Source of the DNA: Enterococcus phage ZJGS3
Reading direction: 5' to 3' (one strand)
Sequence record: PV523736.1
DNA length: 64,000 nucleotides
Shown here: positions 53,361 to 58,396 of the stretch, in pieces
Position numbering within the stretch: the first letter of the stretch is position 1
Layout of the letters: each line of letters begins with the position of its first letter
The notes under the pieces: model-generated
What the model saw: only the letters and a program-made list of their open reading frames with translations
What the model was told of the DNA's origin: nothing
The model's database searches: none
Made by a program: the position numbers and the translations under genes

Positions 53361-53448
53361 TTAACTTATACATATATTATAACACAAACTTACATGATGT
53401 CAACAACTATTTGTAAGTTTTTTTAATTTATCCATTCGGGACAGTGTG

Positions 53449-53525
53449 CTTTAACCATTCAGCCACCCGCAGGGGTAACCCGCAGGACGGGATTCGAACC
53501 CGTATACCACTGTCCTATTGGATAG
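53449..53525 (-). ncRNA. tRNA-like permuted module enclosed by 8-bp helix (candidate Y RNA-like element) inside tRNA array
   Basis: GGACAGTG ... T-arm ACGGGTTCGAATCCCGT ... CCTGCGGG-ttac-CCCTGCGGG ... D-arm-like GGCTGAATGGTTAAAGC ... CACTGTCC. Confidence 0.35.
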
Positions 53526-53679
53526 GCTTGTGTACCTGTCATCTTCCGATTACACACACCTAGTCTAGTTACCGTACCAATAGATTTGACAGGAATCTAG
53601 GGTAACGCCCAATATGGTGTTAATTCACCTCGTATTATGTTACAGGTTTGCAACCCTGAACAAGGATGACCAATCCTAA

Positions 53680-53752
53680 TGGAGCATAGCGGACTTGAAC
53701 CGCTGACATCTACCTTGCAAGGGTAGCGCTCTCCCAACTGAGCTAATGCCCC
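53680..53752 (-). tRNA. tRNA-Ala(UGC)
   Basis: GGGGCAT acceptor, D-arm GCTCAGTTGGGAGAGC, loop CUUGCAA. Confidence 0.8.
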
Positions 53753-53760
53753 GTATAAAA

Positions 53761-53833
53761 CATCTCCGCTGAGATTCGAACTCAGAATGCGGGATTAGAA
53801 ATCCTGTGGTTTATCCAATTAGCCTACGGAGAT
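53761..53833 (-). tRNA. tRNA-Arg(UCU)
   Basis: Acceptor ATCTCCG/CGGAGAT, T-arm TGAGTTCGAATCTCA, loop UUUCUAA (one A-C mismatch in anticodon stem). Confidence 0.7.
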
Positions 53834-53837
53834 ATAC

Positions 53838-54002
53838 TTACTTAAACGGAAGATAAATTGTTTGACCAATTCTAAGTTTATTAGGGTCTTTAATACTTCT
53901 ATTCTGACCATGTAACCTAATTAGTCTCCATAACCAAGGCTTGCCATAATATTTTCTAGCAATAGAATACATTGTGTCACCTTTTTCAACTGTGTATCTC
54001 AT
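53838..54002 (-). CDS. LysM-domain mini-protein (54 aa)
   Basis: Not in ORF track; AGGAGGGTAATTGTTATG; GDTMYSIARKYYG...IGQTIYLP LysM signature; stop 5 nt from tRNA-Arg. Confidence 0.5.
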   Translation of the reverse strand: MRYTVEKGDTMYSIARKYYGKPWLWRLIRLHGQNRSIKDPNKLRIGQTIYLPFK

Positions 54003-54032
54003 AACAATTACCCTCCTAAGTTATAAATATGG

Positions 54033-54401
54033 CTATATATAGGATACTCCTGTAAACAATTCAATTGCTTCAATTTCAGTATGGAAGTTTTCCCATTCTA
54101 AACATTCATAGAAATCTTGTAAGATATGCTTGTCTTTCCTGTAAACAGTCTCACCTTTATGGGCTTTCTCACAGATTTCTCTAACAGCATCCACATTATA
54201 CTTACCACCAGTTTTATACTGCTCTAAACCAGAATCTAATAAAACTCGTTGTACTTCTTCACTTTTATCTCCTGCTTTCCAAGAATCAAAAGCTTTTTCA
54301 AACAGTGTGTCCTCCATGTTTTCACCTTCTACTTCCATGATTGATTGAATAAATCTTTGCCACTTAGAAGGCTCCTTGTGTTTACCTTTACGAAAACTCA
54401 T
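54033..54401 (-). CDS. hypothetical protein
   Basis: 122 aa between tRNA genes. Confidence 0.5.
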   Translation of the reverse strand: MSFRKGKHKEPSKWQRFIQSIMEVEGENMEDTLFEKAFDSWKAGDKSEEVQRVLLDSGLEQYKTGGKYNVDAVREICEKAHKGETVYRKDKHILQDFYECLEWENFHTEIEAIELFTGVSYI

Positions 54402-54427
54402 GATTAGCCTCCATTATCTTTAATGAA

Positions 54428-54514
54428 CCGAGGAGGAGGGACTCGAACCCCCAAACGCTTTTACACGTCTATGACTTTTCAAGAGTCAATTTTTTCCAGT
54501 TATGATACTCCTCG
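54428..54514 (-). tRNA. tRNA-Ser(UGA), type II
   Basis: Acceptor CGAGGAG/CTCCTCG, anticodon arm TGACT-CUUGAAA-AGTCA, long variable arm. Confidence 0.7.
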
Positions 54515-54610
54515 AAAAAGAAATTGATTGACTAGTACTGTTAGTTGACTAGCCAACCGGAACTACTTAAACCGAACTCTTTAAACAGCTTTAGTAGTTT
54601 ATATTTCAAA

Positions 54611-54697
54611 TGGAAGGCATGGGATTCGAACCCACACATGCTGTTACACATCTACTTGGTTTCCAACCAAGCCTCTTTACCGTTTGAGTAACCTTCC
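54611..54697 (-). tRNA. tRNA-Ser(GGA), type II
   Basis: Acceptor GGAAGGT, anticodon arm CTTGG-UUGGAAA-CCAAG, long variable arm. Confidence 0.7.
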
Positions 54698-54792
54698 GTC
54701 TTGGGAGCAGGCGGGTTTGTGTCAAGTACACAATACCTAATCTTTTGTGCATGTTGTTCCCTAGGCTTCATGCACACCCTACTATCTGCATA

Positions 54793-54978
54793 CTAACAGA
54801 CCTGCCAATTTTCTAACACTTTTTCTAATGCTTCGTATGGACACATTACTGTCTTACCGTGAACATCATGTATTCTCAAAATAATATAATGCTCATTTAT
54901 CTCGGAGGTAACAAAGTATATCTTGTCCTTCACTAAACCTAAACTTCCGTTTAAACCAATGAATTTTAAATACATCAT
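54793..54978 (-). CDS. hypothetical small protein
   Basis: AGGAGGTAACATGATG RBS. Confidence 0.45.
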   Translation of the reverse strand: MMYLKFIGLNGSLGLVKDKIYFVTSEINEHYIILRIHDVHGKTVMCPYEALEKVLENWQVC

Positions 54979-55199
54979 GTTACCTCCTAACTATGTATAA
55001 CCCATGAAGCATCATGGGGGGACTGTAGTATGCCCAACCTGCGGGGATGCTCCGCTCTGAATCCGTAGAAATCAGCCACAATTATGTCACTGGTTTAGTC
55101 GGCACCTTCGAGATAGGGACATACAGCTTCAATTTTCTAATGGATTTATAGGAATCTAGCCTTACAGTTGTTTACCCGACTTGTTCTAGACTAGCCTGA

Positions 55200-55335
55200 A
55201 TCTTCCCCTGTGCTATACTGTGTTAATTAGCGTTTACCTATTCCGCCACAGTGACTATGGAGTAGACGGGACTCGAACCCGTGTCCTAACGTAGAACCAT
55301 ACAAAATTCTACGGGCGTAGTTACTAGTTTTAATC
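55200..55335 (-). ncRNA. tRNA-like fragment (T-arm ACGGGTTCGAGTCCCGT and D-arm-like GCGGAATAGGTAAACGC) without canonical cloverleaf
   Basis: T-arm consensus present but no matching 5' acceptor strand; extra 6-bp hairpin GTAGAA/TTCTAC. Confidence 0.25.
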
Positions 55336-56946: not shown

Positions 56947-57231
56947 TTATAGCCCTCTTTCGAACAGACGTCTTAAAGTCTTACCCTCATTATTTAAAAC
57001 ATATACCGAGTTAACATAAGCCTTTGTCTCTCCTTTGTTGTCAACTCTATATTCATAGGGTTCATTTGGAACACGGGTAATCTCTTCATGTTTAGAATTA
57101 AGTAAAGAAAAAGCATTTTCTTGTTCTAAAAGAAATTGTACCCCATCAATAAGTTCGATAAAAGGTTTAGTGGTTGGTTCAGTGCTGTCTTTTGGAACGT
57201 ATTTTCGTTCTCCCAAAATTTGTAATATCAT
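56947..57231 (-). CDS. hypothetical protein
   Basis: 94 aa. Confidence 0.45.
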   Translation of the reverse strand: MILQILGERKYVPKDSTEPTTKPFIELIDGVQFLLEQENAFSLLNSKHEEITRVPNEPYEYRVDNKGETKAYVNSVYVLNNEGKTLRRLFERGL

Positions 57232-57339
57232 ATCTATCTATCTCCTATATGTGAATATATTTACCTCCCGAAAAACGTTTCTTCACCAAAGTGTAAGACG
57301 TAAACTAACGACAGGTCATAGTTTTCCAATTAAGGCAAA

Positions 57340-57413
57340 TACCAGTGAGAGGATTTGAACCTCTGACACCCGCCTTATCAAGACGATGCTCTAACCAACT
57401 GAGCTACACTGGT
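57340..57413 (-). tRNA. tRNA-Ile(GAU)
   Basis: D-arm GCTCAGTTGGTTAGAGC, loop UUGAUAA. Confidence 0.8.
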
Positions 57414-57566
57414 GTGACCCATGTGTCAGGACTTTCACCTGTTCTCGGGGTGCCCCGCCTCTCTACTAATCTCCTCATTCGGTGCCCCTAATAGAGTGAC
57501 TAGAGATAGTTAGCAGTAAAAATTATATATCATGAATCAAATTTTTACTGCATCCTATATACACGA

Positions 57567-57638
57567 TACCGTCTACAGGATTTGAACCTGTGACATCCAC
57601 CTTGTAAGGGTGGCGTTCTCCCACTGAACTAAGACGGT
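57567..57638 (-). tRNA. tRNA-Val(UAC)
   Basis: Acceptor ACCGTCT/AGACGGT, loop CUUACAA. Confidence 0.8.
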
Positions 57639-57644
57639 GAAAAA

Positions 57645-57740
57645 TACGGAAGACAGGATTTGAACCTGCGATATAGGAGTTTTAGTGCACTCATTGTCTC
57701 CCACGGTATCCGTTGCGTATTGCCATCACGCCACTCCCGT
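57645..57740 (-). ncRNA. 96-nt tRNA-like gene lacking a canonical anticodon arm
   Basis: Normal acceptor ACGGGAG/CTTCCGT, D-arm GCGTGATGGCAATACGC and T-arm GCAGGTTCAAATCCTGT; a 45-nt insert replaces the anticodon/variable region; 6-7 nt from flanking tRNAs. Confidence 0.4.
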
Positions 57741-57747
57741 ATGCTAA

Positions 57748-57820
57748 CCGACAGTAAAGGAATCGAACCTCTATCACTAGATTCGTAGTCTAGCATCCTA
57801 TCCAATTGAACGAACTGTCG
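57748..57820 (-). tRNA. tRNA-Arg(ACG)
   Basis: Acceptor CGACAGT/ACTGTCG, anticodon arm CTAGA-CUACGAA-TCTAG. Confidence 0.75.
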
Positions 57821-57922
57821 CTCTAGGCTAGCAATTACGCAGACTGACTATAGGCACCTTCGTCCCGTCACCTGTAAGTGCCCTCCTACAGGTTGTCCGT
57901 GGCACCGCAATGTACTAACCGA

Positions 57923-57996
57923 TGTCCCCACAGGGATTTGAACCCCGAACCCCCCGATTAAAAGTCGGGTGCTCTAGCCAATTGAGCTATGAAGAC
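57923..57996 (-). tRNA. tRNA-Lys(UUU)
   Basis: D-arm GCTCAATTGGCTAGAGC, loop CUUUUAA. Confidence 0.75.
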
Positions 57997-58054
57997 AGTT
58001 GTGTTTTTCAAGATAACCCTCTCGAAAAACCGTTACTAATAGAAAAACTAAGGG

Positions 58055-58128
58055 TCTCGACTGACAGATTTGAACTGCCTGCTCCTCCTAAGAGGCGTGT
58101 TACCAAAGCCATACACCAACTCTTCGAG
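58055..58128 (-). ncRNA. 74-nt tRNA-like gene with tetraloop hairpin in place of anticodon arm
   Basis: T-arm GGCAGTTCAAATCTGTC, acceptor CTCGA/TCGAG with inner mismatches, CCTC-uuag-GAGG hairpin where anticodon arm expected; 2 nt from tRNA-Lys(CUU). Confidence 0.35.
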
Positions 58129-58130
58129 AA

Positions 58131-58204
58131 TATCCCCTACAGGATTCGAACCTGTGACCCCCTGATTAAGAGTCAGGTGCTACCACCAACTGAGCTAAGG
58201 AGAT
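58131..58204 (-). tRNA. tRNA-Lys(CUU)
   Basis: Anticodon arm CCTGA-CUCUUAA-TCAGG, T-arm ACAGGTTCGAATCCTGT. Confidence 0.7.
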
Positions 58205-58207
58205 AAG

Positions 58208-58296
58208 ATTATCAATAGCTAGTTAAGCCTTACGGAATCGAACCGCCATGAGGTTATGAAGCTCACATAGACCACTAGACACAAAACTAGCTTATT
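58208..58296 (-). ncRNA. tRNA-like element (T-arm plus CAU-loop hairpin) enclosed by 14-bp stem
   Basis: Inverted repeat ATCAATAGCTAGTT / AACTAGCTtATTGAT enclosing GGCGGTTCGATTCCG T-arm-like and TGAGC-UUCAUAA-CCTCA hairpin. Confidence 0.3.
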
Positions 58297-58396
58297 GATA
58301 AAATTCTATATAGATAATTGTATGCAATGTTCGCACTAACTAACCAGATAACCAGTCAATCATTCAAAACATTAATTTGTGAGTTTCCGCTCACAA

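Follow-up and report, generated by a model that had tools for sequence, protein, structure and literature searches.

In the genome of Enterococcus phage ZJGS3 (record PV523736.1), four RNA elements designated el1 to el4 are embedded in an array of transfer RNA (tRNA) genes, which was analysed here within a stretch of 64,000 nucleotides (nt), hereafter the window. On balance, we read these elements as four distinct families of stable RNAs that imitate tRNA without decoding, and that would be transcribed and processed together with the array. Their structures, conservation and genomic context are established by the analyses below. We consider them non-decoding because the expected position of the anticodon arm is in no case occupied by a 5-bp stem with a 7-nt loop, and not decaying because their helices are kept by compensatory changes in relatives; the view of them as decaying pseudogenes devoid of such changes, which a preliminary description of this DNA had allowed for, therefore does not hold.

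That description had placed T-arms at five sites, in genes thought to lack a normal anticodon arm or to be permuted. All five T-arms were borne out, on the minus strand like all 24 tRNAs called by ARAGORN, and el1 to el4 proved to be non-canonical, while permutation holds for el1 only. The fifth site (55200-55335) is actually no separate element but the tRNA-like 3′ end of the transfer-messenger RNA (tmRNA), with its T-arm (55266-55282) and acceptor strand, together with about 55 nt of downstream spacer. A scan for T-arms with a 5-bp stem, a UUCRANY loop and the G53-C61 pair recovered every tRNA of the window and, in addition, seven orphans on the same strand (Table 1). Across 50 loci from related phages and from unrelated or control phages, strict orphan T-arms were observed on the tRNA strand only, and, with a single exception, they fell into loci with tRNA arrays, each such locus having 1-8 of them; the set of roughly 30 tRNA-free loci, which amounts to about 0.6 Mb searched on both strands, contained one orphan T-arm in total. 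Orphan T-arms are more frequent than chance would produce.

The suspicion that ordinary tRNAs had been mis-folded by eye was likewise removed, as ARAGORN called none of el1 to el4 a tRNA and only el2 passed, narrowly, the Rfam tRNA model (33.3 bits, gathering score 29). No tRNA match was obtained from Rfam for el3 and el4 at E<=10, and neither an Rfam family nor a GenBank annotation covers el2 to el4, apart from the label 'tRNA-OTHER' given to el2 in phage 113. All three possess a T-arm with a UUCRANY loop and G53-C61 as well as a D-loop bearing GG, and none of the three forms, one nucleotide past the D-arm, an anticodon arm of 5 bp with 7 nt in its loop. The tight packing against tRNAs was confirmed, with gaps of 1-7 nt. 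Recent duplication of array tRNAs was tried as an origin and rejected, the similarity of the elements to every array tRNA being that of the tRNA-to-tRNA background.

Blastn searches with the elements against 50,697 phage records returned matches in Enterococcus phages only. The close relatives of the window are classified as Herelleviridae, Brockvirinae, Schiekvirus, and the queried 5.8-kb tRNA-array region is 100% identical to that of Enterococcus phage ZJGS4 (PV523737.1). Because conservation within Schiekvirus is uninformative (spacers are 90-99.8% identical, like the elements), divergent lineages were retrieved via the Ro60-like protein described below and via the ATPase; loci are given L numbers where they must be told apart. 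Pattern scans of IMG/VR for homologues of el3 and el4 returned close relatives and L072 only, and one metagenome scan gave only identical el3 copies and chance matches. As the MAFFT columns were inconsistent for the two extra hairpins of el2 (HP1 and HP2), the lower stem of el1 and the outer stem of el4, these helices rest on folds of the individual sequences and on duplex tests. Minimum free energy (MFE) z-scores of single sequences (-0.4 to -1.3) were not significant, as is usual for RNAs of tRNA size, and were not used as evidence.

For el1, a T-arm/D-arm module inside an 8-bp helix had been described at 53449-53525; the module stands, but that range omitted the 3′ strand of the helix (53439-53446) and has been replaced by the one in Table 1. 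The RNA starts with a lower stem UAUCCA/UGGAUA and an asymmetric internal loop AUA/CGAA, continues into an 8-bp stem GGACAGUG/CACUGUCC at the anticodon-stem position and a 4-nt analogue of the variable loop, and then forms the T-arm ACGGG-UUCGAAU-CCCGU, a closed hairpin at the acceptor position (8 bp, loop UUACC) and, 3′ of this acceptor-like hairpin, the D-arm GCUG-AAUGGUUA-AAGC. The T, closed acceptor-like and D stem-loops are all enclosed by the anticodon-position stem, which is the permuted domain of YrlA, a Y RNA defined by its circularly permuted tRNA layout (PMC4201824). The Rfam YrlA model (RF02553) matches 53425-53525 with 28.4 bits (E=0.0014-0.005), a significant match for the stretch of DNA searched but one far below its gathering score of 69. 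Homologues were found at the equivalent position in five more lineages (L010/L060, L062, L061, L064/L065), whose Ro60-like proteins are 59-74% identical to that of the window, with the acceptor hairpin deleted in L064/L065. Over five lineages 96.3% of the cells are paired and 15 of 24 pairs have changed on both sides, a result reached by 0 of 500 shuffles, and controls with slid partners pair at 35-52%. None of the 30 matching GenBank records carries an RNA annotation of el1. A consensus promoter lies directly 3′ of the element, which makes el1 the last member of the tRNA-Arg/tRNA-Ala unit upstream. From its sequence, el1 is best described as a putative Y RNA of YrlA type.

Y RNAs are encoded within 4 kb of Ro60 and on the same strand (PMC4201824), and el1 (end at 53429) lies within this distance of a same-strand gene (start at 51890) whose product has a predicted Ro60 fold; three tRNA genes, one open reading frame (ORF) and three other Y units stand between them. 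A sequence search with the product of this gene, a protein of 510 amino acids, against PDB gave no match. Its AlphaFold2 model (predicted local distance difference test score 91, predicted template modelling score 0.91) was compared with PDB by Foldseek, and the seven best matches were all Ro60/TROVE structures (E 1e-7 to 6e-6), including Xenopus Ro60 (1yvr, template modelling score 0.62) and the Ro60 of Thermus phage phiLo (9l5y/9kop). The likeness to Ro60 is visible only via the predicted fold. A literature search for DUF2828, the family of this protein, gave nothing relevant, and one search recovered more than 7,000 homologues, among them a Listeria phage 'RNA-binding protein'.

The segment upstream of the Ro60-like gene carries three tandem Y RNA-like units, within which two sub-threshold YrlA matches were obtained (52133-52246, 45.9 bits, E=1e-8; 52325-52418, 35.8 bits); the former agrees with the YrlA consensus of the D-arm, AGCUC...GAGC. 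Orphan T-arms occur within about 1 kb upstream of the Ro60-like gene in every relative retrieved via that protein (L060-L068), two sub-threshold YrlA matches precede the gene in L010, and in distant phages with a 32% identical Ro60-like gene, YrlA-like RNAs are located in the tRNA arrays, several kb upstream of the gene. The proposal that such elements could be Y RNA-like ligands of Ro60 thus suits el1, by its architecture, its context 1.5 kb upstream of the Ro60-fold gene and its sub-threshold YrlA match, and the Ro60-like protein is, by analogy, a plausible partner of el1. In this respect el2 to el4 are no more than hypothetical ligands of Ro60. As a separate observation, a YrlA-like permuted module follows the ATPase gene directly in L028, L029, L030 and L034 (near 11385 or 5206), phages with a Ro60-like gene of 32% identity, and L028 also contains a sub-threshold match to GOLLD RNA (99.1 bits, gathering score 150).

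The second element, el2, has the limits and the length of 96 nt first ascribed to it. It comprises a 7-bp acceptor, a D-arm, a 5-nt variable loop, the T-arm GCAGG-UUCAAAU-CCUGU and a discriminator A, and the site of the anticodon arm is taken by two hairpins, HP1 (ACGG-AUA-CCGU) and HP2 (GGGAG/CUCCU), the latter with a loop of 18 nt in the window (ACAAUGAGUGCACUAAAA). The element begins 7 nt after tRNA-Arg and ends 6 nt before tRNA-Val, with UUUUUC on its 3′ side, so that its trailer A|UUUUU is of the tRNA kind. Seven distinct variants were collected from Schiekvirus genomes and two IMG/VR contigs, and six of them, each folded independently by MFE, adopt the same five helices. Pairing holds for 99.2% of the cells in the tRNA-like helices, and three pairs, located in the D and T stems, have changed on both sides (G10-C to A-U, 50-64 C-G to U-A and 51-63 A-U to U-A), which was matched by 1 of 500 shuffles. 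HP1 measures 4-5 bp and occurs as ACGG/CCGU, GCGG/CCGU, CCGUG/CACGG or CCUG/CAGG; HP2 measures 4-5 bp as well, occurs as GGGAG/CUCCU, GGAAG/CUUCY or GAGG/CCUC, and bears a loop of 18-20 nt. This loop opens with 7 nt resembling an anticodon loop, in which AAU is invariant (ACAAUGA, AUAAUGA or UUAAUAA), and goes on with a perfect palindrome (AGUGCACU, AUUCGCGAAU or AUUCAUGAAU) and AAA. Between AUUCGCGAAU and AUUCAUGAAU a central double change has kept the symmetry. Taken singly, the palindromes reach P ~0.01-0.06 against shuffles; the segment has no intramolecular structure, and its self-duplex is calculated at -11 to -14 kcal/mol. These sequence features suggest loop-loop dimerisation of el2, as a lead only. 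In the listed Enterococcus phage records other than that of phage 113, el2 is unannotated (one has 'hypothetical protein' instead), and 27 of the 28 matching records have no RNA annotation for it.

The limits of el3, its length of 74 nt, its mini arm with a tetraloop and its mismatched inner acceptor pairs all agree with what had been reported. The acceptor contains five pairs and the mismatches A6.G and G7.A, and is followed by a 5-nt linker, the D-arm GUGU-AUGGCUUUGGUA-ACAC with GG in its 12-nt loop, the 4-bp mini arm CCUC-UUAG-GAGG at the anticodon-arm site, a variable loop of 4 nt and the T-arm GGCAG-UUCAAAU-CUGUC. It starts 1 nt past tRNA-Lys(CUU), and its homologues in L060 and L061 also lie between two tRNA-Lys genes. 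Among the homologues the D and T regions are invariant, while the acceptor has changed from C1-G to U-A, from A5-U to G-C and from G7.A to U-A, with A6.G present in five of five rows, and the mini arm reads CCUC-GUAA-GAGG or, in L061, CUCUAG-GAUAAUCAA-CUAGAG (6 bp and 9 nt). Altogether five pairs have changed on both sides, matched by 0 of 500 shuffles, in one divergent lineage and thus in few independent events. A switch of the acceptor to the downstream segment UUCGAGAG was also considered and dropped, as it shows no covariation in L061. The 3′ side of el3 reads CC(C/U), unlike the U-rich trailers of el2 and the tRNAs, and mature el3 may therefore include a 3′ extension of 57 nt. Conservation of the 57-nt spacer in question (57998-58054, minus strand) reaches 99.8% in the genus; the spacer can still be recognised in L060 and L061 and contains a hairpin GUUUUUC[14 nt]GAAAAAC.

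With respect to el4, the 14-bp stem around a T-arm element stands, and the range of 58208-58296 had to be corrected to 58211-58299. The outer stem AUCAAUA-A-GCUAGUU/AACUAGC-UAUUGAU has 14 bp and one bulged A, and encloses an internal loop, a 4-bp stem GUCU/AGGC, a D-loop-like segment AGUGGUCUAU that lacks a D stem, the arm GUGAG-CUUCAUAAC-CUCAU (5 bp, 9-nt loop) and, with the variable loop absent, the T-arm GCGG-UUCGAUU-CCGU. The stem ends about 5 nt before tRNA-Lys(CUU). L061, with a Ro60-like protein of 63% identity, matches the 60-nt core at 95% identity, and its outer stem is of unrelated sequence with the pairing kept; the duplex of the flanks is significant against shuffles in the window (P<0.0005) as well as in L061 (P=0.0055). 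Three substitutions were seen within the genus: one from U.G to U-A, one from A-U to G.U and one in a loop.

Each of the four elements keeps a tRNA elbow, composed of the T-loop and a GG-bearing D-loop, and a closing helix, and the replacement of the anticodon arm or the permuted order of the arms would preclude the reading of codons. From the spacing and the trailers we infer that they are transcribed with the tRNA array and that their release is probably the work of the host's maturation enzymes that act on the adjacent tRNAs, with RNase P at the 5′ end and RNase Z or exonucleases at the 3′ end; YrlA itself bears tRNA modifications and is a substrate of RNase P (PMC4201824). The partner of el1 would most likely be the phage's own Ro60-like protein, and its tRNA-like head may offer a tRNA-shaped handle to a second, tRNA-binding factor. 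A precedent would be the tethering of Ro60 to PNPase by bacterial Y RNAs, and in one phage, Ro60 has been found to bind both Y-like RNAs of the phage and the PNPase of the host (PMC12135203). In el2 to el4 the tRNA body most likely serves as a scaffold for processing, stability and docking, and the functional parts are proposed to be the conserved big loop with its self-complementary segment in el2, the invariant D/T core in el3 and the conserved 60-nt core in el4.

Several observations weigh against this reading. In addition to the low YrlA score of el1, its D-arm GCUG...AAGC departs from the near-invariant YrlA consensus, and the GNCGAAN0-1G motif, a proposed Ro60 contact, is absent from its 5′ side. 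On the 3′ strand el1 has only CCCGAAUGG, where relatives have CGUAU, UGUAU or GCAA, and the sequence of its lower stem varies between relatives, contrary to sequence-specific recognition of the Ro60 type. As el1 falls short in three YrlA features, namely the score, the D-stem sequence and the 5′ motif, we class it as a divergent RNA of YrlA type outside the family itself. The outer-stem sequence of el4 varies between the window and L061 too, and this lack of conservation argues against a Ro60-type sequence recognition of the stem; moreover, a terminator-like hairpin is situated between tRNA-Thr and el4. Spacers and elements are equally conserved within the genus, so that the structural evidence for el3 and el4 comes from one or two divergent lineages. 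In phage EFP01 (L004 5221-5379) the Ro60-like gene is reduced to its last 50 codons and the three Y units are missing, yet el1 to el4 have been kept; L010 carries the Ro60-like gene but not el2 to el4; and L072 is devoid of el2 and el3, since tRNA-Lys(UUU), el3, tRNA-Arg, el2 and tRNA-Val have been lost at 3950-4480 and el4 is retained there. These patterns indicate that el2 to el4 are not tightly coupled to the Ro60-like gene, and owing to this loose coupling they may have a Ro60-independent role, for instance as a decoy, an adaptor or a multimer.

Among the other explanations, the one that survives best, although we deem it unlikely, is that the tRNA-body mimics are counter-defence decoys or sponges, which would tie up a host factor that acts against tRNA or senses it, for example a tRNA-cleaving defence nuclease or a sensor of tRNA damage, and would in this way protect host and phage tRNAs or blunt abortive infection. 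A near-complete tRNA set, a tmRNA and RtcB are the kit expected against tRNA-targeting defences, the elements appear and disappear among related phages like accessory counter-defence genes, and el3 is sandwiched by a tRNA-Lys pair in three lineages, tRNA-Lys being what anticodon nucleases, PrrC among them, classically attack. However, anticodon nucleases recognise the anticodon loop, which is just the part absent from these RNAs, a derivation of el3 from tRNA-Lys is undetectable, and no defence system is implicated by the present data.

We find it improbable that the folds are pure processing punctuation, recruiting RNase P/Z only for extra cuts in the array transcript. The tRNA-like shape and the tight packing would fit, and small ORFs are indeed scattered through the tRNA array, but genuine tRNAs already lie 1-7 nt from el2 to el4 and leave no useful new cut sites; in addition, the most conserved parts (the loop motif and palindrome of el2, the D region of el3 and the core of el4) are unneeded for recognition by RNase P/Z.

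It is very improbable that genuine, if unusual, decoding tRNAs are at hand, with anticodon AAU and an insert at the canonical 37/38 intron site in el2 and a 9-nt anticodon loop in el4. The el2 insert would have to be removed by some other activity and resealed by the RtcB of the phage, a scenario to which we attach equally little credit. The anticodon-loop-like start of the el2 loop with its invariant AAU ahead of the palindrome and AAA, the Rfam tRNA score above threshold and the RtcB gene speak for this idea, RtcB being the tRNA-splicing ligase of archaea and animals. On the other hand, el2 has an extra hairpin between the D-arm and the HP2 stem, a feature unknown in tRNAs, U33 is a C in two of four el2 loop types, tRNA-Ile(GAU) is already present in the array, and to the best of our knowledge no splicing endonuclease has been found in bacteria or phages. 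In el4 the T stem is 7 nt from the outer acceptor-like strand and the 3′ end is buried in the 14-bp helix, and el3 has a tetraloop at the position of the anticodon loop.

Functionless remnants, that is decaying tRNA pseudogenes or tRNAs broken by insertions, are hardly credible either: the array is fluid in this group, with a truncated tRNA after el2 in L058, homing-endonuclease insertions, neighbouring genes that annotators have in part labelled 'tRNA-Pseudo' and genus spacers conserved like the elements, but every helix is kept by compensatory changes, which largely refutes the idea, the HP1/HP2 hairpins of el2 and the outer stem of el4 have been rebuilt from different sequences with the pairing kept, a phage with protein identities of about 63% retains the cores of el3 and el4 at 95-100% identity, and a parent tRNA is undetectable.

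Table 1. Positions, strand and basis of assignment of the features of the 64,000-nt window
Feature	Position	Strand	Basis and remarks
el1, putative circularly permuted tRNA-like RNA of YrlA type	53429-53524	-	Segment table verified by script
el2, 96-nt tRNA-like RNA	57645-57740	-	Rfam tRNA, 33.3 bits; ARAGORN negative
el3, 74-nt tRNA-like cloverleaf	58055-58128	-	Between tRNA-Lys(CUU) and tRNA-Lys(UUU)
el4, tRNA-like core on long stem	58211-58299	-	No Rfam or ARAGORN call
Orphan T-arms of el1 to el4	53487, 57653, 58063, 58231	-	T-arm scan
Further orphan T-arms, outside the range described earlier	52202, 52379, 60297	-	T-arm scan
Ro60-like protein gene, 510-amino-acid ORF, DUF2828 and DUF7788/vWA	50358-51890	-	Pfam; PHROG 850 'RNA-binding protein'
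Three tandem Y RNA-like units	52040-52500	-	Between strong promoter and Ro60-like gene; two with permuted tRNA-like modules, third without tRNA-like module
Near-consensus promoter-like site (11/12 + TG)	52539-52511	-	Upstream of Y units
Consensus promoter TTGACA-16-TGnTATAAT (12/12)	53376-53403	-	Immediately 3′ of el1
tRNA-Tyr missed by ARAGORN	52821-52898	-	Rfam, 27.7 bits, just sub-threshold; Tyr in phage 113, called in relatives
Canonical tmRNA (ssrA)	55255-55605	-	Rfam RF00023, 145.1 bits, full model positions 1-374; ARAGORN
Met-like tRNA missed by ARAGORN	60974-61045	-	Rfam, 43.4 bits; 'tRNA-Pseudo-CAT' in phage Porthos
ROOL RNA	61071-61657	-	Rfam
RtcB RNA ligase gene	17466-18710	-	Pfam PF01139, 199 bits

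The minus strand carries every RNA gene of the window. ARAGORN reported 24 tRNAs, all on this strand, and one tmRNA, the tag peptide of which is AKNEELLAVA and the acceptor of which (GGGGUAG/CUACUCC with G3.U) is tRNA-Ala-like; this tmRNA is annotated in phages 113, iF6 and CCS1. CCA is encoded in none of the 24 tRNAs, and the trailer begins with U in 19 of them. About 26 tRNAs, the tmRNA, the ROOL RNA, the Ro60-like protein and the Y RNAs together form an RNA-maintenance island of the phage, with RtcB encoded elsewhere in the genome. The parts of the bacterial rsr-yrlBA-rtcBA module (PMC7790460) are thus present inside a phage tRNA/tmRNA/ROOL island. In L067 (12607-17082), RtcB and a second RNA ligase adjoin the Ro60-like gene.

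Some further observations concern the array itself. Two hairpins with 7-bp stems and the same hexaloop CGGAAA, the only two in the 64-kb window, stand directly 3′ of tRNA-Thr (58377-58396) and of tRNA-Leu(UAG) (55817-55836) on the minus strand, and the former shows covariation of its stem in L060. A role in termination, in processing or as a protein-binding motif is conceivable for them. At L067 8418-8493 and 9214-9290 and at L064 8748-8825, relatives encode what is predicted to be a suppressor tRNA, with anticodon UUA, along with a tRNA-Ile (UAU) and a tRNA (UGGA) whose anticodon loop has 8 nt.

Orphan tRNA-like RNAs were also noticed outside el1 to el4. A short unit at 60225-60340 (minus strand), with the T-arm UAAGG-UUCGAAU-CCUUA at 60297-60313, has its own promoter-like site (60371-60343) and a terminator-like hairpin (60286-60271), is 71-81% identical in L010, L060, L064 and L068, and probably represents an independently transcribed small RNA containing a T-arm. 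About 0.8 kb upstream of the ATPase gene in L016-L024 (e.g. L016 9186-9322), a tRNA-like RNA of 137 nt combines an acceptor stem, a D-arm and a T-arm with about 70 nt inserted where the anticodon arm would be; its acceptor covaries (UAUAUCG/CGAUAUA and UAUGUCG/CGACAUA), and these more distant phages thus have an el2 analogue. In L068 (2170-2260) a tRNA-like RNA with a mini anticodon arm of 4 bp and 5 nt follows tRNA-Ala, and skipping-rope RNAs were detected in L010 and L016. The orphan elements of L016-L024 and L068 suggest a wider class. A more far-reaching proposal, namely that el2 to el4 are three undescribed families in which the tRNA body is a chassis carrying new functional heads, that el2 pairs with a second el2 molecule through its palindromes and that orphan T-arm RNAs are a general and overlooked part of the tRNA arrays of large Firmicutes phages, is doubtful as a whole and is put forward tentatively. 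If true, an el2 dimer would be a two-headed tRNA mimic bridging two tRNA-binding proteins or two Ro60-like rings.

The customary view takes the tRNA arrays of phages as supplies for codon usage or against defence, and their gaps are left unannotated. If el1 to el4 are regarded as stable non-decoding mimics, the gaps between array tRNAs hold several conserved structured tRNA mimics, which annotation tools miss or label 'tRNA-OTHER' or pseudo. Should these RNAs be subunits or adaptors of the Ro60-like protein, the biology of Ro60 and Y RNAs would extend to the large DUF2828 family, which is very common in phages and gut bacteria, and a lytic Enterococcus phage with natural deletion variants (EFP01, L072) would provide a tractable system, in which the role of the tRNA-like domain of Y RNAs, a question since 2014, would become directly testable.

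In the tRNA cluster of phage T4, small stable non-tRNA RNAs (species 1 and 2, rnaC/rnaD) are co-processed with the tRNAs, in a phage family and a host different from those of the window. RNAs of the mascRNA type are cloverleaf-like, have a short anticodon arm like el3 and are cut by RNase P/Z, but they are eukaryotic and unrelated in sequence, and the sole mascRNA match in the window overlaps a genuine tRNA-Lys. The tmRNA at the fifth site is a canonical member of its family (RF00023), without any difference. The closest likeness to el4 is found in Yrn1 of D. radiodurans, which also has a long closing stem, a D-loop without a full D-arm, a 5-bp arm at the anticodon position, a T-arm and no variable arm (PMC4201824); there is, however, no sequence similarity and no Rfam match, and the sequence of the Ro60 site is conserved in Y RNAs, whereas the long bulged stem of el4 is unrelated in sequence between the window and L061. 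YrlA of Salmonella, mycobacteria and mycobacteriophages shares with el1 the permuted order and a same-strand Ro60-fold gene at less than 4 kb. In contrast to YrlA, el1 has a lower stem of only 3-6 bp, a sub-threshold score, a different D stem and no 5′ motif, its candidate partner belongs to the DUF2828 family and not to Pfam TROVE, and it is placed at the end of a tRNA transcription unit. Thermus phage phiLo encodes its own Ro60-fold protein with Y-like RNAs just upstream, as the window does (PMC12135203), but its Yrl1 and Yrl2 are not reported inside a tRNA array, and el2 to el4 are without counterpart there. Phage Ro60 and Y RNAs and the tRNA mimicry of Y RNAs are thus already known, whereas the link of DUF2828 to Ro60, a YrlA-type RNA within a tRNA array and the families of el2, el3 and el4 appear to be new.

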